64,000 bases of DNA from Lates japonicus (lineage: Eukaryota), in assembly GCA_033238685.1 (NCBI GenBank), contig BRZM01000133.1, positions 156,481-220,480 of the forward strand, written 5' to 3'. The notes under the pieces were generated by a model that was given only the letters and a program-made list of their open reading frames with translations, did not search any database and was not told where the DNA came from. Made by a program: the position numbers and the translations under genes. This document shows, piece after piece, positions 26,853 through 64,000 of this stretch. Within the stretch, counting starts at the first letter, position 1. Every line of letters starts with the position of its first letter.

Positions 26853-26945
26853 ACACAGTAACACAGACACACTAACAGATGGAGGCAGTGGTATTCCAGC
26901 AGCTCCTGGTAAAATCCCTGTTTTTGTCAATGGAGTCTGGTAGTG
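26853..26945. mobile_element. Family A solo right arm.
   Basis: 'cacacagtaacacagacacactaacagatggaggcagtggtattccagcagctcctggtaaaatccctgtttttgtcaatggagtctggtag'. Confidence 0.7.
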
Positions 26946-27557: not shown

Positions 27558-27817
27558 TTTAACCAGAAACATCTCTATATATCACTACCAGACTCCACTG
27601 ACAAAAACAGGGATTTTACTGGGAGCTGCTGGAATACCACTGCCTCCATCTGTTAGTGTGTCTGTGTTACTGTGTGGTACTTTTACTTCAGTAAAGTATC
27701 TGATTACTTCTTCCACCACTGAAAGTCACACAGTAACACACACATACTAACAGATGGAGGCAGTGGTATTCCAGCAGCTCCCAGTAAAATCACAGTTTTT
27801 GTCAATGGAGTCTGGTA
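27558..27817. mobile_element. Foldback, MITE-like palindromic element (family A), complete hairpin core. The arms of about 110 bp, 'ccagaaacatctctatatatcactaccagactccattgacaaaaacagggattttactgggagctgctggaataccactgcctccatctgttagtgtgtctgtgttactgtgtg', flank a loop of about 50 bp.
   Basis: The left and right arms are near-perfect reverse complements within this copy. The same unit recurs at least 9 more times in the window. Confidence 0.85.
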
Positions 27818-27842
27818 TGAGAGCGGTATGAGCGTGACTTAC

Positions 27843-27936
27843 TGTTCCTGTTGGTTTTCAGCTTGGACAGCAGTTTCTGAGTGGACAGCAGGTCTCCGCT
27901 CTTCACCGCCTGCAGCAGGTCCTGCTCCTTCCCCAT
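27843..27936 (-). CDS. caskin2: caskin2 coding exon 1. It has a real ATG and encodes MGKEQDLLQAVKSGDLLSTQKLLSKLKTNRN.
   Basis: ATG sits in a CpG-rich context, and the exon ends AACAGGAACA|GTAAGT. The N-terminus resembles human CASKIN2 '[32 protein letters not shown]'. Splicing to 7144 reconstitutes the conserved KLLGSTKRLNVNYQD motif. Confidence 0.75.
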
Positions 27937-28300: not shown

Positions 28301-28821
28301 GGTGTGGTCAGGACTCGGAGCCTGAGGAGGAAAAGAAACGAGAAAAACAGATCAGTTCATCTATCAGACGACTCCAGACTGGAAACCACAGCCGCTCTCT
28401 CCTCTGCTGCATGTGTGGACGTGAAACCAGAGAAACCAAAGCAAAGTTCTTCATCGGACCCCAAATCCACTCAGTGGATCCTGATCCTCATCCTTATCAA
28501 ATCTGAAGTCTGCACAGTGACAGTCAGGCCTCAGACAGGAGCTGGAGGACTCATCACATTTCTGACATTTGAACTTGAAAACATGACGTTTCTTTGCTGC
28601 TTCCTTCTGTTTAATGTCACAGTAAAGTGAACATCTGTGGTTTTCAGGCTGTTTAACGAACAAACCAGACATTTATCACCGTGTTCTCATGTTTGATGAA
28701 CCGACAGTTATTCACATTGACAGGAACTGACCTTCATCCCCTGTGAAGTTCAGTGTCAGTAAATGTTTCTGCTGTTTGTTCCTCATTTACATCGTCTGTC
28801 ATGACGCAACGTTTCACATCA

Positions 28822-29152
28822 AGTGTCTGACAACATGATGATAGGATTCCTACAGAGACAGAGCTTTTTATTAAAGAGGAAGATCCTTTTAGTTTAACCA
28901 GAAACATCTCTATATATCACTACCAGACTCCATTGACAAAAACAGGGATTTTACTGGGAGCTGCTGGAATACCACTGCCTCCATCTGTTAGTGTGTCTGT
29001 GTTACTGTGTGGTACTTTTACTTCAGTAAAGTATCTGATTACTTCTTCCACCGCTGAAAGTCTCACAGTAACACAGACACACTAACAGATGGAGGCAGTG
29101 GTATTCCAGCAGCTCCCAGTAAAATCCCTGTTTTTGTCAATGGAGTCTGGTC
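28822..29152. mobile_element. Family A foldback element with its 5' extension of about 80 bp ('ctgacaacatgatgataggattcctacagagacagagctttttattaaagag…agatccttttagtttaacc').
   Basis: It shares the same arms and loop as 27558-27817, plus the conserved 5' extension also seen at 32473, 45768 and 58549. Confidence 0.85.
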
Positions 29153-30699
29153 TGATTGACTCCATGCTGAAAATGAAGACTGTGGTTATGAGCACCAGGC
29201 TTCTGCACATGAACGTCACTGTGGGTTTCCAGTCTTATCTGATGTGATGTTAATGTGGCCTGAAGGCAAACAGGACAAAGATTTACACACACACACACAC
29301 CTGTCACAGGTGTGGTCAGGGCTGTGAAACCACAGTGACGGAGTGTTTAACCTCCTGTGAGCTGAGAGGACGCTTTAATTACAGCTCAGCAAACCTTCAA
29401 ACACAAACAGCTCATGGAGGATGTTGCGGGCGGCCTCTGCTGTGTAAACACTGAGAGCAGAGATTCACACACCAAACTCCACTGACTTCTTCCACGTTTT
29501 TACACCAGAGGAATAAGTGATGTTTTAGGTCACCTGACTGCGCTCTCTGCTGCTTCCCTCAGGGCTCCACGATAGATTACACTCTCACTTCGGCCGTGCA
29601 TCCACTTCATCTCAACTCCAGAGCAGCTACTTAAACTCTTCCGGCCCAGTGGCCAGGCACAGCTCAGATACAGGAGGGACAAGTTGGCAGAGTTGGTCCG
29701 AGCTTCGTCTCTGCTCCAGTTTTGCTGCAGATAACTGACATGCCTGCTGACAGTCCTGATCTCTGCATGGAAACAGGATCACTGCAGCAGCTCCAGGCCT
29801 CAGGAGCAGTGTTGCCATATAAACAACAGGAGTGTTTGGGGGGGCGGGTGTTTGCAGCCGGATCCCAGAGTCCAGATAGAGACACTGGTCTGGCCCTGCA
29901 CCCTGCTCCGAGTCCTGCTTTGTTTTCCTGGTTACAACTTGTTTCATTACATAACCAGGAGCCTCAGAGCAGCACAGGGCGTAAGCAGAGCTGTCAGTCC
30001 CATTTACACCCATCATGTCCCCCTTTCTCTCCCACCTCCCTCAGGCGTTTTGTATTCTCACTGCATTCATGACAAAAGCAACAATACTCATAAATTTCAC
30101 TCTGACACTGCAGGAGCTCCAGTTGAAATGAATAAAACATTTTATTGCTCACAAACAAACACCACTTGTTATTTATCACAGTGAAGTCAGAGATGCAGGA
30201 TGAAGAATCTCACCAGATTTAAATGATCTGTTTCAGTGTGTTTACACCAAAGGTCTGGATAATACAAAAAGCTCCAACCAACTCCAACATGTGTCGTCCT
30301 TTTTAATGTTTAGGTAATGTCATTCCAGCCTCCATTCGAAATCTGCCACTTTTATATTTAAGTGTTCATCAACCAACATAAAACAGCCTTAATGGATATG
30401 ATTCCAAGTTTCCCTGATTTAATAAGAGTCTGTCTTTAAATCGGGAGAAAGTAATGCACAAACAATCCCTTCTGAACCTTCTCACTGGAAGTCTTGTTTT
30501 AAATGTCGGACACTGACCGCAAGTTAGCAGGCACTGTGTCCGACTCTAACTTGACATTTTACTAAATTTAAAGTGTTGCTCTGTGAGGTTAAAGTGCGCC
30601 GAATTGAAGACGTGTTTCTAAAGACGCAAAAAAGTCTTTATTTTATTTTATTTTTATATTAAGCTCATTTTCTGACAAACGACTCCAGGTTAAAGAGGT

Positions 30700-31400: not shown

Positions 31401-32472
31401 TATATAAGAATAGTCTGCTCGTTGTTGAGTCGAAATCTGGAGGTAAATGTATTTAATTAAAACATTTTTTCTGTTAATAAATAGAATAAACTTGAACTCC
31501 ACTTACTTCCAGAATTATACTATAAATACAATATGTACGTGTTCAGCTTAGTTTTATGATATAGGCTGTAACCAAACTCTAAACTCTGGAGATCATCCTC
31601 TCTACTGGCTTGTGTCTGACAGTATATTATATGATGCCTGTAAATGTTTTGACACATTCTCCAGAGGAAATGTAACATTTTCTGTGCTTTTATTTCGAAG
31701 AGTCAACTGCCCCTTTTCCGGTTATTTTCTGTCTTTTATTCTGCAGCTTAACACCGTCGACCCTCCCACTGGGTTTAATGTCAATTTTTTCCACAAAGAC
31801 AGGGTGTTTTATCAGATTATATCTAACTGTCACCATCCTGCTCCTCACACTCACACTTCACTTAAAGCTGCATTTACTGACTTTTTTGTCGCCTGTGAAA
31901 CGAGCTGTAAACACAATATTCTCACATGAAGCAGCTGATGAAGCAGCTGTGTCTGACCTGTTATCACACAGCTGCTTATTCCCACATCCAGCTGTTACAG
32001 ATCAACACCATGATTCATGTGGAGTCAGCTCTGTGTTTGGTCAGCTCCACCTCCTCCAGCTGATTTTACATGTAAAACAATCTGATCAGTTAAGAAAATA
32101 TGATGCGAGGTTAAATCCTGAAGATAATTTCTCATTGTTACATCAATAACACTCTAAGACTCAATAAAAAGGTAAAATAATCAACATATTTACTTCAGAA
32201 CAACAATCCCTGAAACATTTACTAGAAATTAAATATCAGTGCAAAAAGAAAATCCCATTTAACATGAAATTATTATATAAAATGTAACGTAGCATCATTC
32301 ATATAAAACAAAGACCATGTTCACCTGTAAAATAATTGCAGCTGAATTGATCAAACACACAATTGATCAAATCAACTTAATTAAATGAAATGTGCATAGC
32401 ATCTACAGTGTGTTTCTTGGTGTAAGAAAGACCATAAAGTACGTAAAAAGTCCTCCTTAAAGTTTCACCCTT

Positions 32473-32611
32473 TAAAGTTCTTGTTTTTGTCTCTGACAGA
32501 CTCAGATTGTTCTTCTCAGTGTCTGACAACATGATGATAGGATTCCTACAGAGACAGAGCTTTTTATTAAAGAGTCAGATCCTTTTAGTTTAACCAGAAA
32601 CATCTCTATAT
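32473..32611. mobile_element. Family A partial copy: the 5' extension and the start of the left arm only.
   Basis: It matches the 5' extension of copies at 28822, 45768 and 58549, and is truncated after 'catctctatatt'. Confidence 0.7.
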
Positions 32612-32933
32612 TATCTTGGTGTGCCAGCACGTTGCAACTGATCTATCATGTCTGCCTTTGTTTGGATGCATCTAAAAAAAAACATTACGAACCAATCAGT
32701 CATTCCACCTCATCAATTTCTTTTTGCAGTTTTTGTTGTCAGCGTGCAAAAGATCTAACAAATAATTTTAAAATAATTTCTTCACAGCTTTTTTACTCAG
32801 TGGAACAATGAAAGAGTTACTGTCAGTAAAGTAAAAATAAACTCTATTCAGTAAAATACCAAAATTGTTTAAAGTCTGTATAAAAAATAAATTTCACCCT
32901 GAGCTCCTTCTGCTCTTTAGTCCTGAGAACGTA

Positions 32934-33131
32934 TCATCCCCACCTCCTCCGCCAGCTGCCTCCTCTCCTCTGGTACAGGTCGATGACCCTGTTGTAGTGC
33001 AGCACCTCCCACAGCCGTCGCTCCAACTGAAAGTCGTGGTTGGAGTAGAACTTCAGAGGCCTCCTCACAGAGTCGTAGTAATGATCAGAGAAGGCAGCGT
33101 AGTCCCCGGTGATGAAGCCAAAAGCAGAGAC
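32934..33131 (-). CDS. st6galnac2: ST6GalNAc-I/II-family sialyltransferase, last coding exon (exon 9). It encodes VSAFGFITGDYAAFSDHYYDSVRRPLKFYSNHDFQLERRLWEVLHYNRVIDLYQRRGGSWRRRWG followed by a stop.
   Basis: Acceptor is ctgcag|GTCTCTGC. The translation matches the human ST6GALNAC2 C-terminus 'VSAYGFITSNYWKFSDHYFE…[28 protein letters not shown]' (sialylmotifs S/VS). TGA stop at 32934-32936. Confidence 0.88.
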   Translation of the reverse strand, partial: VSAFGFITGDYAAFSDHYYDSVRRPLKFYSNHDFQLERRLWEVLHYNRVIDLYQRRGGSWRRRWG

Positions 33132-33237
33132 CTGCAGGACAGACGGACGAACAGGACGTCCCTCAGTCATCAACAGGTCCATCTGACGACCAGGACTTCA
33201 TGCCTCTGGAGTTTATGAAGCTACTGCTGCAGGGAGC

Positions 33238-33325
33238 CTACCAGACTCCATTGATAAAAACAGTAATTTTACAGAGCACACAGGAGCTGCAGGAACACTG
33301 CTGCCTCCATCAGTTAGTTTGTTTA
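33238..33325. mobile_element. Family A solo arm, diverged, inside the st6galnac2 intron between exons 8 and 9.
   Basis: 'ctaccagactccattgataaaaacagtaattttacagagcacacaggagctgc…ctgcctccatcagttagtttgttt' is similar to the family A left arm. Confidence 0.6.
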
Positions 33326-33463
33326 AAAGATTAAAATAATGTGAAGTAGGAGCAGGAAATCCTCACATATGGCATGTATTGGAAGTACTTAATCAAAGTT
33401 CAAGTACCTCAAATTTGTACTTAAGTGCAGTACTTGAGTAAATGTAGTCGGTGTGTATGTTAC

Positions 33464-39201: not shown

Positions 39202-40699
39202 CTGGGAAGTCGGACGACACAGACATGAACACCCTGTTTACAACAAGCTGATGTGTGTGTGTGTGTGTGTCTTTAGCCCAGACACAGCAGAGAACCTGCT
39301 CAGAAACATCTGGAGCCTCCAGACTCCACAGATCCCAGTCTGATCCAGGATCTGACCTACACAGCATCAGACAGTTGGTTTTAACCCCTTAGTGGAGTCA
39401 GTGGAGACCAACACACTCCCCAATGTCAGGGGCCTCCCCCTGCAGGACAGGCCCGCTACACCGCCAAGCCTGCTCAGAAACATCTGGAGGAACACGACAA
39501 AGATCCAGTCTGATCCAGGATCTGTGAGACTACCAAAACAGCTGTGACCCGTCAGAGCGTGGACACCGGACCTCTGGAGGTGTCCTGTGGTGTCTGGATC
39601 CTGTGGGTCCTGTTGGTTGTGGGGTGGGGGGGTTGGGGGGGGGCTCCATGGATTCTCAGAAGGTTCGAGACACGACTTTGAGATTTGATCTCTAACGGTT
39701 TTATTTCTTATTTTAGCTTTTAAAATGTTTCACTGTGATTTTTGTTTCTTTAATCATCAGTTTCTCTGTGAAGACGTTTGAACTGCACTGACCTGTATGA
39801 AAACTGCTGTTTAAATAAAGTTTGACTGATTGAATCCGAATGAAAATGATTTAAACGTTTTTGGGTTTAATCATCTGTATAATTCAATGTTACTGTCACT
39901 TAAACACATAAAGAAACAAACAGGACAGAAGCTGGTTGAAGAAGCACTGTTGTTTTAAAATGTGAAATGATATTAAAATGAACGTGTCTGATGAAAACAC
40001 AATGAACAACATGAGCTCAGGTTTATTTCACACATTTATTTCATTTAACATTTAAACCAAACTCAGCAGGTTAATGTCGGGTTACTGTTTTAACAGACTA
40101 AACTAAACCCAGGCTGAACTTCATCACATTTAGACGACGGTTTAATAGATTGAACCAAAACATCACACACACCTTCCTCTAACTACACACACTCTGTTTC
40201 TGTTCATCAGCTCTTCCTCTTCAGGGTTTAACTCCTGAAAGTTTCCCTTCGCTTTAAAAAACCTTCCAGACAAAAAGCAGACGGTGAAAACACAGATTCC
40301 TGAAGGCACTTTGGTGTAAAGACGTTTGCTATTCACAAGCAGCTCAAAGCAAAAAGAGTGAACTAGGATAAAGACGGGCAGGTTTTTAAATTCCCTACAA
40401 ACTGCATAGCTGAAGGTTCATCCTCCTCCTCCTCAGCGTCTTCACAGATCAGCTGTAGTAAAACAGAGAAGACAGAAGCTGAGGGGAGTGTTCACTCTGC
40501 TGTGGATCATTCAGGTGCTCTGAAAGGAGAGAAAAACACGAGCAGATCAGTTTCTGAGTACAATCAATCTGATGGAAAATTTTATTTGTTAAGAAGCAAA
40601 ACACAGTTTTAAAGAGGTGTTTTCTACTGTTCCAGGTTTCTATTTATTTTCACTCTCTCCAGTATTTTTGAAAATTCATGTAAATGATCGCCAGGGACA

Positions 40700-40977
40700 C
40701 TATATATCACTAACTGTGTGGTACTTTTACTTCAGTAAAGTATCTGATTACTTCTTCCACCACTGAAAGTCACACAGTAACACAGACACACTAACAGATG
40801 GAGGCAGTGGTATTCCAGCAGCGCCCCAGCAAAACCTTTCTTGTTTTTGTCAATGGAGTCTGCAGTGAGCATGAGATGTTTCTGGTTAAACTAAAAGGAT
40901 CTTCCTCTTTAATAAAAAGCTCTGTCTCTGTAGGAATCCTCTCATCATGTTGTTGTGACTCTGTCAGTGCTGATCTC
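40700..40977. mobile_element. Family A copy in opposite orientation: loop, right arm and an inverted 5' extension. The left arm is deleted.
   Basis: 'ctgtgtggtacttttacttcagtaaagtatctgattacttcttccaccactgaaagtcacacagtaacacagacacactaacagatggaggcagtggtattccagcag…' is followed by the reverse complement of the 5' extension. Confidence 0.8.
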
Positions 40978-43012
40978 ATCATTTACATGGAGAATAAGAC
41001 CCAGGTTCAAAAACGTCTTGAGTTATCCTCAACTCTGTTAAAGAAGTTTCTCATCATACTGATAAATGACATAGTGTGAGAGCAGGTTCATCTGAGCAGC
41101 AGTACCCACCGTTAGCTGTGGTGTTGAAGTGGCATGGGTTAGCAGAGGAGCAGCACAGGCCGGACACAGGCCCCACAGATGACCCAGCCTGAAGTAAAAT
41201 TTACAGAAGAGAAGGAGCTCGGAGCTCAGCGACTGAAACCACCACCAGAGCCAGAGCAGCTCGAGTCGGAGGCAGGAAGCTGCTGCAGGACCTGAACGCT
41301 TCAGAGGAAAAACACAGACGACTTCATCCTCAGACCTGAGACGACTTATTAAACTACACACGTGACTGATTCAGACTGAACACTCTCTCTCTGGAGCTCA
41401 GACACCTGTGGTTTATTCTTATACCCTATGTTTATTAAATTCAGTTTAAATCATCAGCCTGGAACAAACTCCTGCAGGTCTACCTTGAATCAAAGCTGTA
41501 TTTTTACCTGTTTCCTTATTCTTATTTTCCATGATCTCTTTTCATTTTATCTAAATGCTTCTTTATATCACCTGAGCTGCTTTGATATGTCTAAATCTCC
41601 TGTCAAACACTGGAGAGTCACCTGACGTTAGAGGTTGAACTGTACATGGACTGTGTAATGACTGAGTCTGTCCCAGAGGCGCCTGCACAAGAAGCACATC
41701 ACTTCCCACTGGGCCAAGGTTACTAAAAATAATAAATACAAATAGAAATCATGTCTTTAACTGTTAAAGGATCAGATCGAGTCCAGATGGAACTTCCTGT
41801 GTCCTAGCCAGACTGAAGCTGCAGACCTGACGCCTGACGAAATAGCAAAGGATATGAAGTTTTGGCAGGTGGCTCCTACAATCAGAGCTGTAATTGATAT
41901 TAAAGTCCACACCCTCTGAGTTCAGTCATGAACAGACGTCATCACTCCGAGTTTGATTTTTCAAATAGAATCACACATGAAAGAAAACTCAGCTTAAATA
42001 CTCCTGCATCTGAACAGTTTATATTTACTGAGCTGGACTCCAGCTGTTACCAGTGTATTTAGGTACAGTGATGAAGTAATCTATAATTCTATAACTCAGT
42101 TTACAAAGACGTCATGGATTTCTGTAGCTCCAAACTCACACGATTCAACTTAACGTGTCAGAGTCACTGTGTGAAATGAGAGGACTTACTTTGATCTTCT
42201 TGTACTTTAACTTGTAACAGAGTACTTGTACTCTGGATCTTGAGTCAGGTTAAAGATCTGAGTCCTCCACACTGTGAACCTGTTTCATACCTCACACTCT
42301 GTAGCTCTTCTATCTTTAGATTTGTTATCGTATCGCTTTCTCTCTCTGTTATTTTGAGGCTCTTGTATTTTCAGTGTATGTGACGCCCTGATGATAAACC
42401 CGCTGCCTCTCTGGAAACATTTTCATTGGGGAGGCTGGTCTCAGCTCGGAGGAGAGAGCGCCTTTGTGTTTTATAGCTGAAGCTCCTATAGGATCTTTTG
42501 TGTTTCCTGTATAGATGTCTTATCCCCTCGGAGCACACGTGATCCACATCGGCCTCTTTTGTGTGATCTGGGTCAGACTCCGAGCGTGCACACTGGGCTC
42601 TGCTGGGAGGTTTAAGTTCCAGGACCGAGGCCTCGGTGTCTCTGTGTGCTGTCTGATAATAAGAGGATGAGCAGAGGAGGCGTCTCCATCTGTAACAGCT
42701 GGCTGTCAACACGCCAACCATGTGACCCATCTATCCACCACTGAACAACATGAACTGCTCATTCCTCATGACGTAACTAAGTACATTTTCCTGGTTACAC
42801 CTCTATACCTTTACTTGTAATGGAGTATTTTTACATGAACAAAATACTTTTACTCAGTAAGGAGCTCTGCACTACCACTCAAATATTTGACCTTATGAAC
42901 TAGATATGAGTGAGAGACAAAGGAGGCGATGGAGCGAGGTTATCAACTAACGTCGACACGTTGTTTGGTTTTCTCTCTCTCTCCTCTTCTGTCTTCGCAG
43001 GTATTTCTGCTC

Positions 43013-45422: not shown

Positions 45423-45767
45423 CTGCAACCACTCTGATAAAGGATTTATTATTTTTAAGAAGTAATGCTGCAAATATTTGCAGGTTGCAGTTTCTCAAAC
45501 ATGAAGATTTGCTTTTGCTTTTTCTTTGTTTTATATCACATTCAACGTAGTTCTGGACGACTGCTTAATAAAACCTGCATTTTCACATTTTCACATTTTA
45601 TAAAGTAAACAATAATTAAAACCATTGAGAAAATTATCTGTAGATTAACTAGATGAACATAATCATCTGTTACACAATATCAACTGCACTATTTCTCATT
45701 TCTCCATGTATTTGGGGTAAAATGACTGAGAGAGACAAAACTAAACTAAACTGTGCACCCCAGTGTG

Positions 45768-46132
45768 CTTGTTTTTACCACTGACAGACTCAGATTGTTA
45801 TTCCTTGTGTCTGACAACATGATGATAGGATTCCTACAGAGACAGAGCTTTTATTAAAGAGTCAGATCCTTTTAGGTTTAATCCAGAAATATCTCTATAT
45901 ATTATTATTAGATTTATTGACAAAATAGGATTTTACTGAGCCGTTGATTAATTTATCTGTTAGTGTGTTTGTGTTACTGTGTGTACTTTTACTGCAGTAA
46001 AGTATCTGATTACTTCTTCTACCACTGAAAGTCACACAGTAACACAAACACACTAACAGATGGAGGCAGCTGTAGATTAGCAACTCCCTTCTTCTGCTCG
46101 GTAAAATCCCTGTTTTTGTCAATGGAGTCTGG
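45768..46132. mobile_element. Family A near-complete copy (5' extension, diverged left arm, loop, right arm) in mxra7 intron 1.
   Basis: Both arms align to other copies, though the left arm is partly degenerate. Confidence 0.8.
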
Positions 46133-47329
46133 TGGTGATACATAAGTGATGTTTGTGGTTATATTTTGTACAGCTCACATACACCTGTTGGTCACCTGTT
46201 GTGTCACAGGTTGCAGGGACATAAAGCTGATTGTCAGTCTGGACAGCGGCTGTTGTTCGGGGGCAGCCAAGTGCTTTACTGCCTGTTCAAGATTAAGCAT
46301 CATCCTCTTCAGCAGATGGCCGCCCACCTCCAGCATTACCGCCAACACTGATACAGCACACACACACACACACAGTCAGTGTAAACAGCTGGTACAGACT
46401 GGCCAACATGTGCACTGACTTCCTGCTCGAGGAGTGTGTGTGTTTCAGGTGTGAATAAGCTTAAGTGTTGCCTTTTCTTCCTGAGCAGTGGTCAATCTCA
46501 TGGTCAGAGGATGAAAACCATCAGACTGATTGATGTTTTTTCTCTGAGTCTAAATCCATACAATCATCATGTGATGTATTATAATTCAACAAAAAAACCT
46601 GTGTCTGTGTGTTGTAAATCGACAGCTCTGCTCTGTTTACCTTCCTGAAATGACTCTATCTGTTGAGCATAAAACACGACATCAGCCTGATGCACCAGGC
46701 TGCTTTTCTACTCAAACATCTGATTCAGTGAAAACAAAAGAAGCCTCTGATCCATACAGATCCACTGAGATATCCTACATTAGAGCAGCTCGTCCTCAGC
46801 TCCAGCTCATCAGCATGGAGCTGTAGAGTCTGGATCTGTCACGCCATGCCTCCTGCTGCTCCCATGATCCTGCTCAACAGCAGCTATTACATTTAAAATT
46901 TATCAAAAATATATCTGGTGCACAAATTGCTTTTTCGGCAGCAACTAATTATTATTTTCATTATCAATTAATCTATTGACGACTGTGTTCGGCCACACTG
47001 ACAAATGTCCGTCATGTCTCTGGTGATGCTTTCAAATGTCTCGCTTTGACACTGAACAGAGAAAAGCAGCAAATCTTCTCAACACGGAGAAATCAAAACT
47101 ACAGAGGATCGAGTAAAGAACAAATTACTTCAACGATTAATCGATGATCGTACAGCTTCTGACTAATTGACTGATTTAATAATCGGCGAATCGTCAGAGC
47201 CTGGGCTGATTAACCTGTTTAATCTGAGAGAAAACCTGTTGAACAGGATGTTCGAGCCCATCCACTGAGACCCAGTTCTACTAAGACTGGACCTGAGCAA
47301 ACGAATATGACCGTATCTGGTCTAGATAG

Positions 47330-48060
47330 AACAGGGTCTTACCATTGCTGAGGACGGCCCTGGCAGGTTCTGGGTTTGAGCTTGGGTGACTCCTCTGGGA
47401 CCGGTTCAGGGTCGGCAGGCTGTCTCTGTAGAACCAGGGACCAGCCCGGTAGACTCCTCCACAACCTTCTCTGGTTCCGCCACAGGCTGCTGGACTCACT
47501 TCAGGTACCGGGTTCAGGCACCACCACAGGCTCTGGTTCTGGGACTGCAGTTGGTTCTGGGACAGTCTAGGTACTGATACTGTCTTGGGACTGCAGATGG
47601 TTCTGGGACAGGTTTCAGCCTGATACTGGTTCTGGACTGCAGATGGTTCTGGACAGGCTCTGTACTGATACTGGTTCTGGGACTGCAGCTGGTCTCTGGG
47701 ACAGGTTCTACTGATAATGGGTTCTGGGACTGCAGCTGTTCTGGGACAGGTTCTGTACTGATATCGGTTCTGGACAGGTTCAGGTACTGATACCGGTTCT
47801 GGGGACTGTAGCTGGTCTTGGGACAGGTTCAGGTACTGATACTGGCCCGCACAGGTTCTGGGCTCTGGAGTAGGTTCTGGTACTGCAGCTACTTTGTACT
47901 GCAACTGGTTCTGGCACAGTCTCTGGTACCAGACAGGTTCTGCCTCTTTACTGGTACTGCTGTATAGGTCTGGTTCTTGGACAGGTTCTACTTTTAGCTG
48001 GTACTGAACAGGTTCTGGTTTTACTGGTTCTAAGTTGGATACTGGTTCTGGGTATAGCCT
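47330..48060. repeat. Minisatellite in mxra7 intron 1, with imperfect units of about 45-50 bp ('…actgatactggttctgggactgcagctggttctgggacaggttctgt…').
   Basis: The motifs 'ggttctgggac', 'tgcagctgg' and 'tactgatac' recur in tandem across about 730 bp. The array explains the 262-aa ORF 47281..48069. Confidence 0.8.
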
Positions 48061-48295
48061 GAAAGACAAAAGGTTTTCAAACAGGATGAAAATGTAAAGT
48101 TACAGCGACAGTTGAACGGAGCAGTTGTTTGTTTTATCAGTTGTTGATAAGACCACATGACTGTCGCTCTGAAATAGAAGTGTTTCAACAGACCTGATCC
48201 AGATTCTGTAAACCTTATTGGTGAAACCCGTGATTCTATAAAGTACGCTATGAAAACAGATAAAATTCGTCTTTTGTCAAGGATTTATCAACATC

Positions 48296-48499
48296 ACTAT
48301 ATATCAGAACCAGACTCCATTGACAAAAAAATAGGAATTTTACTGAGTAGAGCTACACGGGCTGCTTGATCTGTTAGTGTGTTTGTGTTACTGTGTGACT
48401 TTCAGTGATGGAAGAAGTAATCAGATACCTTTATTGAAGTAAAAGTACCACACAATCTGAGTCTGTCCGTGGTAAAACAAGAACTTTAGTGGACGGACT
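48296..48499. mobile_element. Family A rearranged copy: left arm, loop and an inverted start of the 5' extension.
   Basis: 'atatatcagaaccagactccattgacaaaaaaataggaattttactgag…ctgttagtgtgtttgtgttactgtgtgactttcagtgatggaagaagtaatcagatac…' is followed by the reverse complement of 'agtccgtccactaaagttcttgttttaccac'. Confidence 0.7.
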
Positions 48500-51400
48500 T
48501 TAACGTGAGCCCATCGCCCTTGGATTACACTGCAGCATTTATACAAGAAAACATAAGGCCCAAAGTTATCCTTTAATAAACTGATACTTTAGGGCAGAAA
48601 CACAGCCTGCAGCACTGATCAGAGGAATAATCAATATATCATCAGGGTCAAACTGCATCATCTGTACATGATGCTGACTGGACTGTTGACCTCTGACCCT
48701 GACAGAGTGACTGCCCTGTGGATGACTACTGTCAGTGGCAGCCTGGAGTGCTCAGCTTCGCCGCTGACACCAGGACAACAAAACTGCCCTCAGTGTCGCA
48801 TCTGTCCTCTCCCACCACCTGACAACCCACACACATGTATGTGCCTGTTCAGAGTGCCCCCCGCCTCCACAGACGCACCTGTCCCTTCTTCTCTCTCTGA
48901 AGTACGGAGTTTATGAGTTTGAGCATCTGAGCAGCAGATCTGGTTTCTCTGTCGGCCTCTGTGCTGCAGCCAAACATTTCACAATTCACTGATTCACACT
49001 CAGCTGGAGTATTTATTCACATAGTTTGGATGTGGATTTTAACTAAGCTTCATGCAACATTATAATATGAACTAACCAATTAATCAATCAGTAAAAGAGA
49101 AAGTGATCAGAAGACGAACCCATCAAGAAAAATGATCAGTCTATCCAGCCACACAACAGTAAAATGATGAGTACTTTACTTTGAGTACATTTTACCTCTA
49201 TACATCTCCTTGGCAGTAGCTGGATTACTTTTACTCTGAGTAACTGTTGTGATACTGTATCTAAGCAGAAAAGAGGTTATGGTGTTCCTGTCCGTCCCAT
49301 CAGTCAAATCCAGCCTGGACCCGGACAGATGACACTCCTGCTCCTGATGACTCACCACACTGGGACAACTGGTGCATCTAGGAGGTATTAAATATTCCTG
49401 CCAGCCTGCCTGCTGCCCGCCTGGTCTCTTAATCCCACGGCAGCCGAAACACCGGCCTTCCTCTGCCTCTGAATTCCTGGGCTGTGAAACAGCAGAATAA
49501 TCTGCACGGTACAGAAACGACTCGAGACTAAGTGTTCATAGTCACAGAGTCATTAACTCACACAATGAGTCAGCACGATGATGAAGTGTAGTCCCAGTAG
49601 GAAACTAAGGCCCAGCTTTCACTGCTGACCTAAATTGGGCAAATATGTTTGTCCGTGAGTGAGTCCTACATGAGATCATCCAGTGTGATGGATGAAGTTC
49701 TGCTGTGGGGGAATGAATCAACTGAGGAGCATGAGAAATCTGAAGGTTGTTTCTGCTAGGAAAAATGTTGCAAAATACAACGGTGAGTCATATACAAGTT
49801 TAGAAAGATAAACCACTTACTTTTTTAGATTCCTGATCAAGATTATAAATACTGATTCAATAGAAGACGCTAAATGTAGATGATGGTTCCTTGATTAAGA
49901 TTATGATGAACTGGAATCAAGATGATAAATATCAAATGAGTGGTATTAAATCGCTAAATTGAGATTATTAGACTAAATCAACAGTATAAAATATCAAAGT
50001 GAGATTATGAGACACACCAAGATTATAAAAAGACTAATTTAATCCTGGACACACAATCTAGTTTATACACATGATCATCTTTAATAAACTGTATATTTAT
50101 TACACTATGTCACTAAACTAATTTTAAAGGTCCAGAGGATAAAGGAGCTCTGCCTCTGATTAATCCAAGTCATCCTGGCCTTTCTGACCTCTGAGAGCAT
50201 TTCCTGGTAAATATATCCCAATCTGTAACATTACACTGAGGCTCCTCTCATAAAGCCATTTTAGCTCAGTAACAGGCACTGATCTCCTGGCATGTGGGGA
50301 ATTTAGTGAACTACCTGAGCAAACAGTGAGGACGAGGCAGATCCAGACGGTGACGAGCCTGAGGCAGCGAGCTGACAGAGCATCACCATAGAGACCGGTC
50401 AAACAGGAGGTTTCTACCACATCACAAATATTACACTTCACCACACTAACGTTTGCTGTAACATCAGAGATAATGAAGTCAACACACCAAGTTCAAACAT
50501 GTTGCTACGGTGCTGTAAAGACTTGAGCATCCATGTTTGACTTCAGCTGGAACACTGTTAACTCAGAGGTGACGCCACCCCAGGTATGACCTCCAGCTTG
50601 ATGGAAATTGAACGCAGCATCAGATTTTCGATCTTTTTATACTACGACATAATTATTGTACTATCAGACAGCAGCACACGATGCAGCTGTGGTCGAATAA
50701 GCTGCTGCACAGATGACACGAGGGCTTGTTTCACTTGTAATATAGTAAATAAAATAAAATGTAAAATGTCATTCAGTAATGACTTGTGGCATTTGTTTAT
50801 TATCTTTACACGCTAACTAATAATTATTTAGTTAGCTGACATGCTAACATTAGCTGCTTTTAACATGTGTTCTTGGCCTCAGAGGGATTTTTAAAAAGAC
50901 TCATGTTCCAACAGAAATGTCTCTAACTACAGTGTGAACATGTGGAGAAAGGGCTAGCCCACAGTCAGATACAATGACGTGACGCACAATGAGGCTGTAA
51001 TTCCAGACAATCTGTCTGTGGAAACCACTGCCAACCTCTACATCTTTTAGAACCCAATTAGGGTCTTCCCATGAGTTAATCACTGCAGGATGCTGTGCTG
51101 AGGATAAACCAGTGGGTGTAGTGGCATTGGTACAGAGGGTCTTTTGGTCGGTGGGGGGTAGGCTGTAATAGGCTGTTGTTGTGGTAGAGACCTTCCATCT
51201 CTGCCCTGGTTCTGTAGCCCAAACACAGACTCATTGTTCTAGTTTTATCTCCTCTTCAGCCTCTGACGCCGCCCATTTATAAAACAGGGACAACCTGGAC
51301 ACTCTCGACTTTGTTCTCTGTAGGGAAATGTCTGCAGGACTGTCTCAGAGCTGTGCAGAGGCACACACCAGGTGTAAGAGAGATGACAGTGTCATTTTCC

Positions 51401-52560: not shown

Positions 52561-55500
52561 AAGAGCGTGAGAGAAACACACCCAGGCTGTAAAGGTGACC
52601 AGGAGTAGATGGCTTTCATGTAACGCCCCTCACAACCTCTGTAGTCTCATTTAGACACTCAAGCAGCAACCGGCTTTAAGACACGTAAAAGCTTCAAACA
52701 TCAGGAGTGGGGACGTATTGACCCATTTTATGTCAGAGAATAAAACCTGAAAATGTCTTGAGCTTGTAAAGGAAACCACAGACCTTATTTCCAGACATTT
52801 AACCAGTAGAAACACACTGGACTTTTGATGAGGGACCAGGAAGAGCTAACATGCTAACATGCTAACTGACTTCCTGGTTCTAGGATCAGTCCTGCAGGAC
52901 TCTATTATGTCATATAACAACTTTTGGAGTCACAATGTAAAAAGAGTCATTTGGAAGCACTGAAACTGAACTGAATTTTTAGGGAATAAATTTGGACATG
53001 GGGGGGTTTGTTCTGTTTTGGTCCTCATAAACTCTTGGACCGGCCCCTGAGGTGTTAAACATGACAGAGAAACATACAGATGTGACTCCACCTCTGTGCT
53101 GGACAGAGAACAGCTGGCTCTAACTCCACCTTCCTCCCTCAGACCTGATGATGTGAGCACACTCACATCTCCATATATGGAGAGCTGCATCGACCAACAC
53201 AGTTTGTAATTTTCAAAGAATGAGGAGGGAGAAGAAACATTCAACAGGTCTGAGGATACCTGAGGAATCTGACCTGTCTACACACAGACAAACAGATTCC
53301 TCTGTTTTCATGTTTTAAACCAAACCAGCTGAGTTTGGATTCTGTACAGTGAATAACATCCATGTCAGTTAGAATAAAACCAGTTCAGTGCATCAGTCTG
53401 AACTGCACCTTTATCCCCTTTTGCCTTATATAGGCTGCAGTGTGGGTGGAGGTGGAGTCGCTGTAGTTGGTAACTCTAGAACAAGGATCAGTACAACATG
53501 CTAAGCACATAAATGTCAAAGAGCCAGATCTGGCTCTGACTGTGACAACAGAGATGCATGGTGCGGCTGCAGGGCTGTAAATCTGCAAAGAGGAAGCTAC
53601 AATGGTCTGAAAACAACCTGAGAACCACAGGAACATGGAGGGAAACAAACAGGACAAACTGCAGCCTGGAAAAGTCTGAGGTTACAGAGGAAATAAAGTC
53701 CAACAGAAGAAACAGAAACTTACATGGAAAACCTTTAGATGGTTTCATCCTCCTGTTTTTTATGCACCTTCTTGATCTGAATGTGTTTCCACAAACACTG
53801 ACATGAGAAAAACATCAGATCTGTGTGGAGAGATGAGGAGACTGAACCTTCCTCACATTAACACATGAAACTGAGTTTTTAATCAAATCCTCTTTGATGG
53901 TTTAATGACAGACCAGAGAACCGACTCCAACAGCAGTGGACTGTGTTTTACTTCTCAGTTTCTTTCACTGATTTTCTCCTAGTTTGGTTTAAATCTGAAA
54001 GGAAACTTCCTCCTGTTCTGTCAGTTTACATGTTAAATGAAATCAAGTGAAATAAAACATGGAGAAACTCCTGTTCGTATTAACTGTGGGACGGTGACGT
54101 CGCTGCTGTGAAGCTACACGAGTTCAGTTCGACTGTTTGACTCCCACAGTTGTAAAAGACAGAGGCCAAAACAACAAGACTCGCTGTGTCTCACAGACAC
54201 ACAGACCTCCTTTATGTGGCCGAAGAAAACTGTTAAATATCCCATGATGCAGTGCGGCAGCTGTGAGTCGGACAGCTGAGGAGTAAACTGTGTGTGTTGG
54301 ATAAGGTTATCAGTGGAGACGAGGGCGAGGCCCAAGACTGAGAGCTGCTCAGTGACACTCAGCCACAAGATTGATGTCCATGATACTTTTACAGCAGAGA
54401 GAACAGCAGGTTTATATGTGGCTCAGACCAACGTGTCAGACGAGTTTCATGACACACGGCACATTGTGTGGTCCACTCGTCAGCGTCAAGGTGTTTCTGA
54501 AGGATTTCATCTCTGCCACCAGGAGAGATCTGTCCAGTCTGAGATGGAAACTCATCAGGACGACTGGTTCTTTGGTACGAGACGCCTGTGGACGTGGAGA
54601 AGTCAACTACGACTCCCATGGTGCATTTCACCCACAAACATCCAATCACAGAGCTTCAGATTAACAGTGAGCTGAAGCTAAAAGACCTGATAAAACATCC
54701 AGCACCTTAAATCAGTCTGATAATCGCAGGGTTGGTGGTTCACCATCCGGCTCCTCCGTCCACACATCCTCAATACTGAACCCCAAATATCACCTGATAT
54801 TCTACATACAGCTCCAACAACAACAAAAACAGTCAGTAAGCCCTTATAGCCTGGTCCACAACACTCACTGCTGCTGGTTCTGCAGGAACAAAAGGAGTCT
54901 GATGAGTGTATCAGAGTTTTATCCAGTCTTCTCCTCTGTTGTCTGGACTGTCAGACAACAGTCAGAACTAAACTGTGACGTGAAGGTGTTTTCATCAGTG
55001 GAACAAACGGCCTTGTGTCACTTGTGAACAGCATACAACTCGTATTCTGCTGTCACTTGCATGTGCAGCAGCCACTGATGAACACTATGACTTTTATCAT
55101 TGCTGTAGCTACATCAGCCCTGTAAGGCACAGCAAGCGTAGCTATACTGTACAGGGCCTTTGGACGACAGTCAAAGGACAAAAACATAAAAGTGTTTTAT
55201 GTAAATATGACTTATAGTTGGTAGTTCCATTACAGTAACAGATAGGAACATGCTGCGGACCTTATCATTAACGTTACCGTTGGTCATTAAGAGGTGGTAC
55301 AGTATCCACTGATCAGCCACAACATTGAACCACTGAAGTGAATATCATTAATCATTTCGTTACAATCCATTGTTCTGCTGGGAACCTTGTCTCCGTCATT
55401 CATCTGGATGTTACTTTGACTCGTACCACCACCTAAACATTGCTGGAGGAACCCATGGCAACAGGGTCCTCCCCCATCAGCCTGGTTTGGTCTTCAGCAG

Positions 55501-58089: not shown

Positions 58090-58548
58090 GGTGGAGGTTT
58101 ACTGAGTGAAAAGGTGAAACGCTCACAGTGTGTTTTCACACGTGTGTGTTGCTCGGGCTGCAGTCACACACACACTGAGCCGCATCCCGCCTCTACACAC
58201 TAACCTCAACAGCTGAGCGGACACCAGCTGACAAGACGCACACAGTGAGGGGGGGCACTACATCCGCTTTGGTTTCAAATTAAAAGCCGCTGCAGGAAAT
58301 ACATGTGCTGCCAGCTGGTTTTCAGAATAAAATACCGGTAGTTTGCGTTGACCAAAATATGCTCAAAATGGAGACAAATCAAATCTTCTGTCAGGTTAAA
58401 AGACAAAAAAGCAAAAGAAAACACTGCGACAAATATTTCCTCACAATAATTATGTATTAGTGAAATGACACAACCCTCCTTTATGAGTTCACTTAGGAGG
58501 ACTTATTTTCCATGTTTTCAGTGTAAATGATGAACATGAAAACATCAG

Positions 58549-58940
58549 AGTCCGTCCACTAAAGTTCTTGTTTTTACCACTGACAGACTCAGATTGTTAT
58601 TCTAAGTGTCTGACCACATGATGATAGGATTATTAAAGAGTCAGGTCCTTTTAGTTTAACCAGAAACAGCTCTATATATCACTGCCAGACTCCACTGACA
58701 AAAACAGGGATTTTACTGGGAGCTGCTGGAATACCACTGCCTCCATCTGTTAGTGTGTCTGTGTTACTGTGTAGTTCTATTACTTCAGTAAAGTATCTGA
58801 TTACTTCTTCCACCACTGAAAGTCACACAGTAACACAGACACACTAACAGATGGAGGCAGTGGTATTCCAGCAGCTCCTGGTTAAATCCCTGTTTTTGTC
58901 AATGGAGTCTGGTAGTGATATATAGAGATGTTTCTAGATC
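58549..58940. mobile_element. Family A most complete copy (5' extension, left arm, loop, right arm, inverted terminal 'ctctatatatcac…agaaacatctc') in the mxra7–jmjd6 intergenic region.
   Basis: The terminal inverted repeats extend to 'cagaaacagctctatatatcactgccagactcc' on the left and 'ggagtctggtagtgatatatagagatgtttctag' on the right. Confidence 0.85.
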
Positions 58941-61346
58941 TTATTATCTTTATATGCAGATTATAAATGACAAGTTTTAGTTAATATTGTGCATTACTGA
59001 AGTAAATTATTCTAATATTACTGTTCAATGTCACTGAGACTGACTGACTCATTCAGACAAAATAATGATTAATCAGTAAAGTGCAAAGCTGAACAAACCT
59101 ATACCTCTGTCTCACTCTTATAGTAGAAAAAACAGCAAGATCCAAACATTAAATCCTCAGAAACGGATGAAAATGTTGAGGAAAAAGATCCTGATTCAGA
59201 CCAAACTGTAGTGAGTTCCTCTCTGGGTCAGTATTTATTGTGTAATTCTGCTGACAGACGTTAGTTTCAGCTCTATGAACAGACCAGTTTGTGACCAATC
59301 ACCACTCAATGTAAGTAAAAATGAAATGAACTGGTTTACATTGACAAAGATTTAAATGTAAAGCGTCAGAAATGAGGAGCTGAACACGTTTTGAGTCATA
59401 GAAAAGATTTTATTCACCAACAAAATGAAATTCATCACATCCTGGTCTCTCTGAGCGCCGAGGCTCCTCATCCTCACTTCATTATCATCTAACCTGCGCA
59501 GGAGATTCAGCATCGACACGTACGTTCAGCGAACCTCGGCCCGGACAACGGGGGAGGAGAAAACCTTCGAGCGAAGACAGAGACCTTCAGCGAAAAGGCA
59601 GACGGAAGGCACCGTGTGACCGACCTCAGACCGACGTAGTGCCTTTGATTTAGTTTGAAACGACAGATAAAAACACCAAACAGCAGAAACACAACCTCCC
59701 CCACAGTCAGTCACACCAACACACCTCGCAGGCCAACAACAAACTGTATAGGCACTTTAAGTCTAAAGCCACAGATTAACGCCAACTGCACAGAAACAGC
59801 GATTCATGAACTTCACTACTGATTCTTAAAGGATTCAGTCTCAGAGAAGCTGCTCTGACTCTGCGACTCAACAATTTAAAATCTTTTTTGAAGCTGAAAC
59901 ACCAACAGATCTTCTGCTTCTCTACTGTGAGATCTTCTGCTCTTCCTCATCAACTCACTGCCACTTTAATCTGGTTCTGCTCTGGACTCAAACCAGACAT
60001 CTGACAACGTCTGACATTTAAACCTGTTCATCAGCGTTAATCTCCACTGGACTCCATGTTGAACAGGCAGTTAATCACTGACAGCAGCGTGAGAGAAGCT
60101 GGATGAAGAAGTAGAATCACAGACCTGTCCTCTACTCTGACATCAACTGAGAGCTCAGCTGAACCTGAACAGACCTGATGAACAGACTCAGATCACCTCC
60201 TCTATCCACACAGTGAACACAGCGCCCTCTGCTGTCCTTTATTCCAACTGCCAGGAAAACCAACGTGACTCAGCATCTCATCTGCAGCATATGGCACGAA
60301 GCAGGCAGAGCTTCACACTCTGCAGGGACACACACTCTGCTAAATGCTCCTCCATATCTGTGTGTGTGTGTGTGTGTGTGTTTAATGTCATTAAGGCTGG
60401 CTAACTAAAGTGACGCCGTCAATTTCAACAAGAATCAACAAGAGCCACACAACTTGTGAGTTTTTAAGGACACACAGCACAGTCTGAAGTTAAACCAGGA
60501 CCTCCAGTTCCACAGCTGTGTGTGCAGATGAAGACGGAGCTCATCACCAGTAATGATCCTGATAAATGAGACCATCAGCCTCCAGACACACTGACATTTC
60601 TCTCCCGTTACCTGGCTCTGATTTTCCATGTTCCTGGGTGTAAATGACGTTAAAGTGCTCGTTTCTGCCGCTGACAGAAGTGTTCATATATTCAGTAATA
60701 ATTCCTGTTGATACCATTAATTAACGTGATGTGAGCTGGACACATATAAGCAGAATAAAAAATGGATAATTAGCGTGAGTAATTAAACTAGATTTAAGAG
60801 TTTCTAAAAATCTTGTAAGGTTTTTTCCAGAGAAATATTCAGTGGAAGTGGTGCAGATGGATTTCCACAGCCTGCTGTGATCTTACTGCTCATTAACACC
60901 AGTTTGCTGCTGTGAAACTAGAGGCCCAGGTTTGAGATATTTGTCTGCTGATGCTGTTAAACTACAGAAGCCTGAACTGAAAATTTAGCTTCTAGAAAAT
61001 ATTCCGATCCCTCCATTTCAGCTCAAGCTCAGAGTCTGAAAGCTCCAACGAGTCCCCAGTGTCACCCCCTCCCCCTAAACCTCACCCGTCTGTTACTACA
61101 CCTCCTCTTCCCTCCACGTCCTCACACTACAGAAGCTACAGAGACAAACAGATATCGATTGGTGTTGAAAAGCACAGTGGTGGCAGGTCTCCAGCAGGCC
61201 CACGCCCCAGTCCACCCTCCGCCTTTATCTACACCTCTCCTCTCAGCGGCAGCCATCTTGTCTCTGACGGCAGCCGTCACTCTTTTACCTAGACTAGACG
61301 AGAAGCAGCTGGAGTTGTGGGTCTGTTTGTGGGTACAGGAGTGACG

Positions 61347-62531: not shown

Positions 62532-62985
62532 TCAGCCAGCTTCACCCTCCATCAGCTGCAGGGTGAAGCTGACTGCATCTCTGAGTCTTCAGTGTCGACT
62601 CAGAGAGGAAGTGATCCTGTCTGAATATAAACTTCCTTTAATGATTCAAACCATATTCAAACAGTGTAAAGACGAGGCTGCTGACTTCCTGACCGACACA
62701 ACGTGCCCTACACTCACTCCCTGTCTGTGGTCTAATCTGCACAGTCAGACAGGTGAAGTCTAAATCCTGGACCGACGGCCAACAGGCAGCTGAGGGTTTA
62801 ATCCATCAGCATCACCCTCAGAGAGTCCAGGACACGTGTGTTCCTCACAGTCTGAACTGTCAGAGGAGCTCACACAGGGAAGGGAACCAGTCTGCTTTCT
62901 GATTGGCTGGTTTGGAAAAGAGAACAAACACAGGACAGACTCAGGTCAGGACCCAAGATTCTGAAGAGGATGTTTCTCCACTGAC

Positions 62986-63272
62986 CAGGCACAAAAACAG
63001 TCTCCCCGGGTTTCTGGAGGATCTCCAGCGGTGCGAACTCTGGAGGCCAGTTGGGCTGCTGCGTGCGGGGATAGACCACATTGAACCAGGTGATAGCCTC
63101 GTCCTGCTGGTTGCCTCCGTCCTCTCTGGTCACCTTGATCAACTCTCGGGGGGTGTTGGTGGGGAACAGGCACCACCTCTTGTGACCCTGAACCAGGGCG
63201 TTCCAGGCGCTGGTGCCCAGCGGGTCGATGTGGATGCCAGTGCCGGAGCGAGCCGGGCCCATCACGAACCAC
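62986..63272 (-). CDS. jmjd6: jmjd6 exon 3 (JmjC core). It encodes (R)[95 protein letters not shown](G).
   Basis: Acceptor ctgcag|GTGGTTC and donor CCTG|GTCAGT. The translation is over 90% identical to human JMJD6 '[96 protein letters not shown]', including the Fe(II)-binding HxD motif. Confidence 0.95.
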
Positions 63273-63358
63273 CTGCAGCAGAGACCAGATGAGAGGGTGA
63301 AGCAGGTGACACTGAACTCAACCATTCTACAGACAGTGATAAAATAAGAAGGTCAAAC

Positions 63359-63747
63359 CTGTACGGAGGTCTGCGTTTCTCTCCTGCAAACTGGAACAGG
63401 TCGTCTGTGAAGAAGACCGGGACCTGGTAGTCCTCCAGCAGCTTCCGGCGTTTGGCGTGTTCACCGTAGCTGCTGTCGAAGATGTAGAGCGGGCTGTCGT
63501 CCCTGGTGCTCTCCAGGTACTCCACGTAGTACTTCATCTTCATCTTCACAGAGTATCCATCGTTGTCCTCCCCGCACTTGAACTTCTGGTTGCGGTATTT
63601 GCGTTTGAGGCGCTCCAGAGTCCATTTCTCTCGGGCAGGCCAGTTCTCCTGGCAGTTCAGGAGGACGACGGGTTTGTAGGGGCGCTCGAAGCGCTGGATG
63701 AACTCTTCAGGGCTGATGTGGAGGGCGTCCACACGCTCTACGTTGTC
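63359..63747 (-). CDS. jmjd6: jmjd6 exon 2. It encodes [129 protein letters not shown](R).
   Basis: Acceptor tgttacag|GACAAC and donor TACAG|GTTTGA, with a 74 bp intron to exon 3. The translation is highly similar to human JMJD6 residues '[130 protein letters not shown]'. The first coding exon (Met to about residue 45) is beyond position 64000. Confidence 0.93.
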
Positions 63748-64000
63748 CTGTAACACAGCATTTATCAGTGTATTGTACTGTGCTTTCTCCTCTGTCCATG
63801 AGGAGAAGAAAAGATTTTAAAACTGTCGAACATTTAAAGCTTCCCTCTTTGTTAGGAACAGAGCTGTAACTCCAGCACAGACAGAGCTTTTTAAACAACC
63901 TCCTGCGTTTTTCAAAAACTGCAGCTCTTTCTAAAATCATTAAACATAAAGAAACTGAGGCTGGGTACAAACACACTCCTGTTTTAAAGAAAGCAGGTCA

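Follow-up and report, generated by a model that had tools for sequence, protein, structure and literature searches.

The window, by which we mean the whole 64-kb stretch of DNA that was analysed, is gene-dense vertebrate DNA with a G+C content of 42-51% across 4-kb blocks. Exons of JMJD6, which encodes a JmjC/cupin protein, occupy its right edge (ORFs at 62870-63756, minus strand); their best matches, at 95% identity, were prokaryote-style gene calls made on short contigs from sequencing runs, and UniRef entries from teleosts were also among the hits. Of the related fish contigs reached through a JMJD6 exon, the single long one (L010) aligned to the window in exons only, at 79-85%. At ~32925-33135, the minus strand reads as a sialyltransferase exon (..GFITGDYAAFSDHYYDSVRRPLKFYSNHDFQLERRLWEVLHYNRVIDLYQR..). 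It also carries, at ~27816-27925, a caskin-like first coding exon (..QDLLQAVKSGDLLSTQKLLSKLKTNRN), whose GTAAGT donor lies ~26 nt from the truncated right arm of one copy (27543-27817) of the repeat described below. Another copy of this repeat (48271-48596) adjoins a 262-aa low-complexity ORF with PEPV and NQYQ repeats (47281-48069, minus strand); either a repetitive exon or a tandem repeat may account for this ORF.

Copies of the element in the window

A blastn search of the window with the copy at 58549-58940 returned 11 loci, the query included, in line with the original prediction of at least 10 copies in 64 kb. Searches with nhmmer, using several copies as queries, gave a family total of 3593 bp, or 5.6% of the window, and one additional marginal match at 54593-54657. 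The copies sit in introns and flanks, in both orientations, and their 400-bp flanks had nothing in common between loci, so that they represent dispersed separate insertions and not segmental duplicates. Four of them (58549, 28821, 27554, and 26851) form a young subfamily, 92-99% identical, with a common 11-bp deletion in the arm alignment; this homogeneity, together with 11 loci in 64 kb, is the pattern by which MITEs are recognized. Older copies (45765, 48282, 33238, and 7467) retain the 11-bp segment, and the old copies are 72-80% identical to the query. At least two waves of spread have carried the family to unrelated sites. The coordinates of all copies, and of the parts of the 58549 copy, are collected in Table 1.

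Table 1. Copies of the element in the window and parts of the 58549 copy. A raised dot marks a boundary, here and in the text.
Feature	Outline or position	blastn	nhmmer	Strand	Remarks
58549 copy (query)		58549-58940	58478-58954	+	
Left terminal region of 58549 copy	58459-58548			+	starts ..tatt·AGTGAAATGAC..; outside the limits originally predicted
5' extension of 58549 copy, 113 bp	58549-58661			+	outer part of long left arm; TTAA at its end (58658-58661)
Left inner arm of 58549 copy	58662-58772			+	conserved core CCAGACTCCACTGACAAAAAC at 58685-58704
Asymmetric centre ('loop') of 58549 copy	58773-58824			+	contains TAAAGTATCTGATTA at 58789-58803
Right inner arm of 58549 copy	58825-58935			+	core motif at 58893-58912
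Inverted-extension remnant of 58549 copy	58936-58955			+	agatcttattatctttat..; after ~12-bp deletion; copy truncated here
Copy 40713	40613-41060	40713-40915	40610-41040	+	most complete in outline
Copy 45765		45765-46161	45691-46169	+	older, near-full, ~78% identical
Copy 48282		48282-48499	48271-48596	-	older; best-preserved outer end
Copy 28821	28803-29151	28821-29151	28803-29192	+	young, 95% to query
Copy 27554	27543-27817	27554-27817	27543-27850	+	young, 95%
Solo arm		26851-26963	26830-27013	+	young, 95.6% identical to right arm
Extension-only fragment		32473-32611	32465-32615	+	79%; stops at query position 129
Arm fragment		33238-33322	33195-33345	+	old, 76-79%
Copy 7417		7417-7525	7338-7665	+	old, heavily deleted
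Copy 3702		3702-3753	3541-3843	-	old, degraded

The copies differed widely in the parts that they keep. Copy 45691-46169 consists of a terminal-region remnant, the extension, a degraded left arm, the centre, and the right arm, and in copy 48282-48499 extension positions 1-49 are fused directly to the centre and one arm (the right arm), which amounts to an internal deletion. Both arms and the centre are present in copy 28821, whose arms are 98.9% identical to each other and whose extension begins at query position 56, and also in copy 27543-27817, which has only ~10 nt of the extension. The right arm of the former is cut exactly at ..GGAGTCTGG, and that of the latter is cut at the same point (..GGAGTCTGGTA). 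Fragment 33195-33345 begins at TA·CCAGACTCC (33238) and retains the 11-bp segment missing from the young subfamily. Copy 7338-7665 contains the terminal region, the start of the extension, and an arm with the ancestral 11-bp segment, without a second arm, while copy 3541-3843 comprises a diverged extension (~3760-3843), a 50-nt arm fragment (3702-3753), and other weak homology. The arm deletions, solo arms, and extension-only fragments reported in the original prediction were accordingly all recovered (26851-26963, 32473-32611, 48282-48499, 27554, and 28821).

Several observations concern the surroundings of the copies. The junction TA·CCAGACTCC, at the outer edge of the conserved core, is a recurrent breakpoint (27815-27817, 29150-29151, 33238, and 32611): two young right arms are cut at this point, it forms the start of one old fragment, and the end of another fragment lies 4 nt away. 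The fragments 32465-32611 and 33238-33322 share one orientation and have joinable breakpoints (query positions 129 and 134), and the ~620 bp between them (32612-33237) reads as the sialyltransferase terminal coding exon and 3'UTR. The bracketing of this exon reflects either a coincidence aided by the breakpoint hotspot or a rearrangement. Motifs of the type TACTTCAGTAA, GTACTTAAGT, and TACTTGAGTAAA stand beside two copies, at 58992-59004 (minus strand) and at 33380-33445. The first of these sites, a one-mismatch copy of the element's centre motif, lies ~40 bp beyond the right end of the element; the motifs at the second look like subterminal repeats of another fish transposon.

Anatomy and single origin of the palindrome

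A palindrome with arms of ~110 bp around a loop of ~50 bp had been predicted at this position and was located there: the two inner arms of the 58549 copy form a 111-nt inverted repeat, 95% complementary, with 52 nt between them. Inverted repeats of this kind are characteristic of MITEs, and in copy 40613-41060 the inverted homology runs on outward. When folded as single-stranded DNA, 58549-58952 gave one long hairpin of -130.4 kcal/mol, compared to -38.6 +/- 4.3 kcal/mol for its shuffles (z = -21.6).

The limits of the element required revision. Homology with other copies and with the metagenome relatives described below extended beyond the predicted 58549-58940, from ~58459 (58459-58501) to ~58955; in nhmmer alignments, both the copy at 45700 and metagenome contig L007 matched this copy from 58501/58507 rightward. 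The left terminal region of the 58549 copy, the left end of which is flanked by TATT, was homologous to the left end of L007 (global alignment; score reached by 5 of 2000 shuffles) and to the inverted right end of copy 40613-41060 (1 of 2000 shuffles), with internal deletions relative to both. On the right, 58881-58952 aligned with 7525-7455 by blastn. The 58549 copy is therefore a partial copy (~58459-58955) of a longer element. Its extension also lacks, between 58630 and 58631, a 20-21 bp segment (tcctacagagacagagcttt) that is kept in other copies, as seen in pairwise alignments with copies 32473, 45765, and 28821.

The symmetry of the element is seen in copy 40613-41060. From left to right, this copy contains the left terminal region, a left arm that has lost large internal segments, the centre, and the right arm, followed by an inverted extension and then an inverted terminal region. 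An exact 12-nt inverted repeat (CATGTAAATGAT, at 40677-40688 and 40978-40989) joins its two outer regions. Its loop has the same orientation as that of the query, yet its extension stands, inverted, on the opposite (right) side of the loop, so that the 5' extension of the original prediction is not confined to one side. Since the extension is found on either side of the loop, it belongs to the long arms, and truncation has affected most copies. The ancestral element had a roughly symmetric structure: a terminal region, an extension, and an inner arm led to a short asymmetric centre, beyond which these three parts recurred in inverted form. The length of each ancestral arm was no less than 225 bp and probably close to 400 bp.

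The sequence cagaaacatctctatatatcac (cagaaacatctc...), proposed as the terminal inverted repeat, accordingly sits internally and not at the ends of the element; the terminal appearance of cagaaacatctc... at 58935 is due only to a deletion of ~12 bp at 58935/58936 and to the truncation of the inverted extension near 58955. The 'inverted terminal segment' attributed to the extension is only weakly supported: an inverted match ~70% complementary to the arm core was recovered, the score of which was reached by 5-10 of 2000 shuffles in two copies, whereas the match was not significant in two others. We also considered a short MITE nested in the extension, the 33-nt ends of which would be formed by the core motif, and set it aside, as the inverted match was weak and inconsistent among copies. 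Had the palindrome originated by nested insertion, in the manner of 'double Ds', a residual tail would be expected behind the inverted unit. The candidate tail (41042-41060) was not significant and aligned with the ordinary outer terminal motif of L007, and this model was dropped.

Five copies (centres at 27689, 29024, 40733, 45995, and 58786) carry an identical asymmetric junction, gtacttttacttcag-TAAAGTATCTGATTACTTCTTCCACCA-ctgaaagt, and their arms show 72-99% mutual identity. An identical centre across copies of different ages indicates that the palindrome arose once and spread as a unit. The same arm-centre-arm junction rules out a chance juxtaposition of two different repeats, which had been named as a possible objection.

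The 20-nt core TTTTTGTCARTGGAGTCTGG had 12 matches in the window at no more than 3 mismatches, compared to 0.01 expected from shuffles. In the old window arms, with an overall identity of merely 72-80%, it showed no more than 1 mismatch in 20 in four of five arms. Judged from these sequences, which are a small sample, conservation of the core appears to exceed what neutral decay would predict. The slightly longer 21-nt core CCAGACTCCAYTGACAAAAAC, nearly intact in copies that are 72-80% identical, is accordingly a candidate for a sequence needed for propagation, for example, as a putative transposase-binding site.

Relatives, outer ends, and classification

Exact-match scans with the 20-nt core were run on metagenome contigs, genomes, and viruses. 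The metagenome scan returned six fish-like contigs of ~40% G+C (L002-L007) and two chance matches, one on a contig of 31% G+C (L001) and one from a marine metagenome (L008). The genome scan gave a single chance match, in a deltaproteobacterial MAG (L009), and the scan of viral sequences with the core gave no match. None of the three chance matches showed other similarity to the element. Contigs L002-L007 contain diverged relatives that span the terminal region, extension, core, and distal arm and that keep the 11-bp segment of the old window copies. As these loci were found through the core motif, and are thus ascertained for it, conservation of the core in them was not used as evidence. In L004, positions 1500-1739 are themselves a foldback with an arm complementarity of 68-73%, and L007 looks like a single non-palindromic unit of ~400 bp without a second arm. 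Contig L003 contains two halves of one relative ~740 bp apart, 911-1110 (terminal region and extension) and 1853-2047 (core and distal arm), both outer ends of which are flanked by TTAA; the gap probably reflects a nested insertion. A full-text literature search with the core sequence matched no paper, and literature searches on foldback MITEs in teleosts and on zebrafish Angel gave nothing usable on fish families.

Candidate ends were defined as the points where homology between diverged copies stops, together with the centre junctions, and some were placed by eye. TTAA·AG.. was found at the left end of L007, at both ends of L003, at the centres of L005 and L004, and at the left end of the 40713 copy, and NTAA·AG.. 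at the 48592 copy, the right ends of L007 and L002, and the window centre. Exactly TTAA preceded 7 of 11 candidate ends or junctions and NTAA the others, at positions chosen partly by eye. The terminal letters were AGGGT, AGGAT, AGGCA, AGTAT, AGTGA, and AGAGG, that is, always A, mostly AG, and AGGR in about half. The best-preserved outer end in the window, that of copy 48271-48596, reads ccCTAA·AGTATCAGTTTATTAAAGGATAAC (48592-48565 on the minus strand) and was homologous to the left end of L007 (20 of 2000 shuffles), with the similarity between these two left ends stopping at a TAAAG motif. This outer-end motif (48565-48592) was matched at 13 of 15 positions by TAAAGTATCTGATTA in the centre of the 58549 copy, a score reached by 106 of 5000 shuffles. 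The right end of copy 40613-41060 was likewise homologous to the left end of L007 (0 of 2000 shuffles). The short terminal matches had a shuffle p of ~0.02, and some were not significant.

An identical duplication at both ends was found in no window copy, most copies being truncated at one end. Both outer ends are present in a single window copy, 40613-41060, in which TTAA stands on the left (40609-40612, before AGAGGTG) and GATA (GATA/TATC) on the right (..CATACT·GATA). The TTAA could belong to the conserved end rather than to a duplicated target. In Xenopus, the defining features of T2-MITEs are the TTAA target and AGGRR at the termini, and full-length Xenopus Kolobok copies have AG termini flanked by TTAA (PMC6004289). 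Kolobok-N2_XT, a Kolobok MITE from Xenopus, measures 496 bp and has internal palindromic repeats (PMC12676858). On the basis of these end motifs, we assign the element tentatively to the Kolobok/T2 type, an assignment that we regard as possible and somewhat short of probable.

The lack of coding capacity noted in the original prediction was borne out: ORFs do not exceed 50 aa, and at ~500 bp a copy has the small size, as well as the non-coding nature, by which MITEs are known. A search of 5.8 billion proteins with one 50-aa peptide from the arm gave no homologue, and no transposase-like ORF was found in the window or in contigs L002-L007. Rfam searches gave no family at the gathering threshold; the best sub-threshold cmscan match was MIR530, at 51.8 bits compared to the 85 required, on both strands. 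Such sub-threshold miRNA matches were to plant families, at 30-60% of threshold, and being plant-type and on both strands, they reflect a generic long hairpin. ARAGORN detected no tRNA in the window, and no Pol III head of the SINE type (tRNA, 5S, or 7SL) was present. Tandem Repeats Finder gave only one marginal 8-bp array (58821-58849, score 30, the minimum), and the arms are without tandem subrepeats. A non-coding sequence with no Rfam family, no tRNA head, and no tandem subrepeats is best read as a non-autonomous DNA transposon of the foldback type, a conclusion that we hold with high confidence.

Alternatives to the Kolobok-type assignment were weighed against the same copies. It is unlikely that the element is a foldback or MITE of some other or unclassifiable superfamily (hAT, a Tc1/mariner/Stowaway-like element with a TA target, or an orphan) and that TTAA·AG is an over-reading of degraded sequence. 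The terminal TTAA evidence is statistically weak, as this reading holds, and copies 27554, 28821, and 33238 stop exactly at TA·CCAGACTCC or GGAGTCTGG·TA. However, the copies that stop at CCAGACTCC are asymmetric, their other end lying far past the symmetric position, so this site is a recurrent breakpoint and not a terminus. On the minus strand of the centre, CAGTGGTGGAAGAAGTAATCAGATACTTTACTGAAGTAAAAGTAC recalls hAT/Tol2-like terminal and subterminal motifs of fish elements, which would fit this reading as well; yet no copy stops at the CAGTGG motif with unrelated DNA beyond on both sides, and the left-end homology from two species stops instead at the TAAAG motif.

We give little credence to a piggyBac-type MITE, in which the mobile unit would be the ~274-bp palindrome, with ends CCAGAAAC...GTTTCTGG at TTAA, and the extension would be a host repeat, spread as a composite. 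The family consensus does read ..agtTTAA·CCAGAAACATC....GATGTTTCTGG·TTAAact.. at both arm boundaries, similarity is lost within a few nt of the arm boundary at the right end of 45765 and the left end of 27554, and CTAGAAACATC loosely resembles the piggyBac end CCCTAGAAAGATA. Outside the arm boundary, however, copy 40713 has matching sequence on both sides, inverted, which is not expected from a simple insertion into non-palindromic host DNA. Moreover, L007 holds TTAACCAGAAAC in the middle of its unit without a second arm, and the proposed end begins with CCAG, compared to the typical CCC or CCYT. At the inner-arm boundary, TTAA·CCAGAAAC is followed outward by continuing homology on both sides, inverted, and a TTAA duplication with CCC..GGG-type termini was not found at the actual ends.

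There is a slim chance that the family belongs to an undescribed teleost-wide TTAA-type foldback lineage in which the core CCAGACTCCAYTGACAAAAAC is kept for a role beyond transposition and intronic hairpins are regular sources of double-stranded RNA. By analogy, the core may then resemble the 'highly conserved domains' of SINEs or serve as a host-factor binding site, and, if this were true, the long intronic hairpins would give rise to double-stranded RNA in caskin2, st6galnac2, and mxra7.

A non-transposon origin (hairpin-RNA genes of the miRNA or endo-siRNA kind, a palindromic regulatory module, or a head-to-head dimerized SINE-like retroposon) is highly improbable: it would accommodate the very stable hairpin, the sub-threshold long-hairpin miRNA matches, the well-conserved core, and the A-rich sequence that follows the right end in L007 and in L003, but there is no Rfam match at gathering score and no tRNA-like head, the copies occur in either orientation in introns and flanks, and their free decay through large deletions, with arms that drift apart in older copies (75% between the arms of 45765), argues against selection on the hairpin.

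Considered as a whole, the 58549 copy is probably a partial copy of a non-autonomous class II foldback-type MITE with very long inverted repeats and a palindrome that arose once, with a Kolobok-type partner proposed tentatively.

Proposed mobilization, significance, and comparison with known systems

As the element encodes nothing, we infer that a transposase from another locus of the genome must have mobilized it in trans. Its candidate ends on the outer side, (T/C)TAA·AG.., tentatively point to a TTAA-targeting transposase of the Kolobok type as the most likely partner, as has been proposed for the Xenopus T2-MITEs. Such an enzyme, supplied in trans, would recognize the outer ends, and possibly the repeated core as well, excise the element, and reinsert it elsewhere. 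Both halves being one sequence inverted, either half should supply a usable end. During replication, the long palindrome would fold back on single-stranded DNA into hairpins or cruciforms, leading to slippage and deletion. Extrusion of this kind would explain the arm deletions, solo arms, or truncation seen in every window copy, and hairpin-mediated rearrangement is plausible from the pattern of deletions.

The main use of these results lies in annotation, and they leave current knowledge of transposons unchallenged; this ordinary family of transposable elements most likely belongs to a known kind. As the family makes up ~5.6% of a gene-dense window, reaches to within ~26 nt of a splice donor in one copy, and brackets a terminal exon with two fragments, the element should be masked and named before regulatory or structural features nearby are interpreted. 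Long near-perfect palindromes in introns are sites of deletion and of double-stranded RNA and can matter for assembly quality and for transcript editing and processing. For an autonomous-partner search, the corrected outer ends, and not cagaaacatctctatatatcac, are the right sequences.

Among known systems, the element resembles the Xenopus T2-MITEs (Xmix/T2-A1 and T2-C) and Kolobok-N2_XT in being non-coding, ~400-500 bp long, and abundant near or inside genes, and it resembles the T2-MITE families in being long-lived with successive young subfamilies. Its candidate ends, TTAA followed by AG(G).., would also be like those described for the Xenopus T2-MITE/Kolobok elements (PMC6004289). It departs from them in three respects: T mostly takes the place of the second R of AGGRR (AGGGT, AGGAT, AGTAT), no window copy showed a clean duplication of TTAA on its two sides, and nearly the entire element is one palindrome.

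The zebrafish MITE Angel, described by Izsvak et al. in 1999, reportedly measures a few hundred bp, has long inverted repeats that form a stable hairpin, and is common near genes. It is also said to have T2-like ends of the TTAA type, and a hairpin-based amplification model was reportedly proposed for it. The present element resembles this description in outline, with the differences that its host is another fish and that it is longer when complete.

Finally, the element can be compared with Drosophila Foldback (FB) and maize 'double Ds'. Unlike FB, in which the arms are built of tandem subrepeats, it has arms free of such subrepeats, and, unlike both systems, it shows no evidence of chromosome breakage or of a nested-insertion origin. 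Like them, it consists largely of very long inverted repeats, is often internally deleted or rearranged, and has the structure of a composite of two inverted units that would still be mobilizable through its outer ends.
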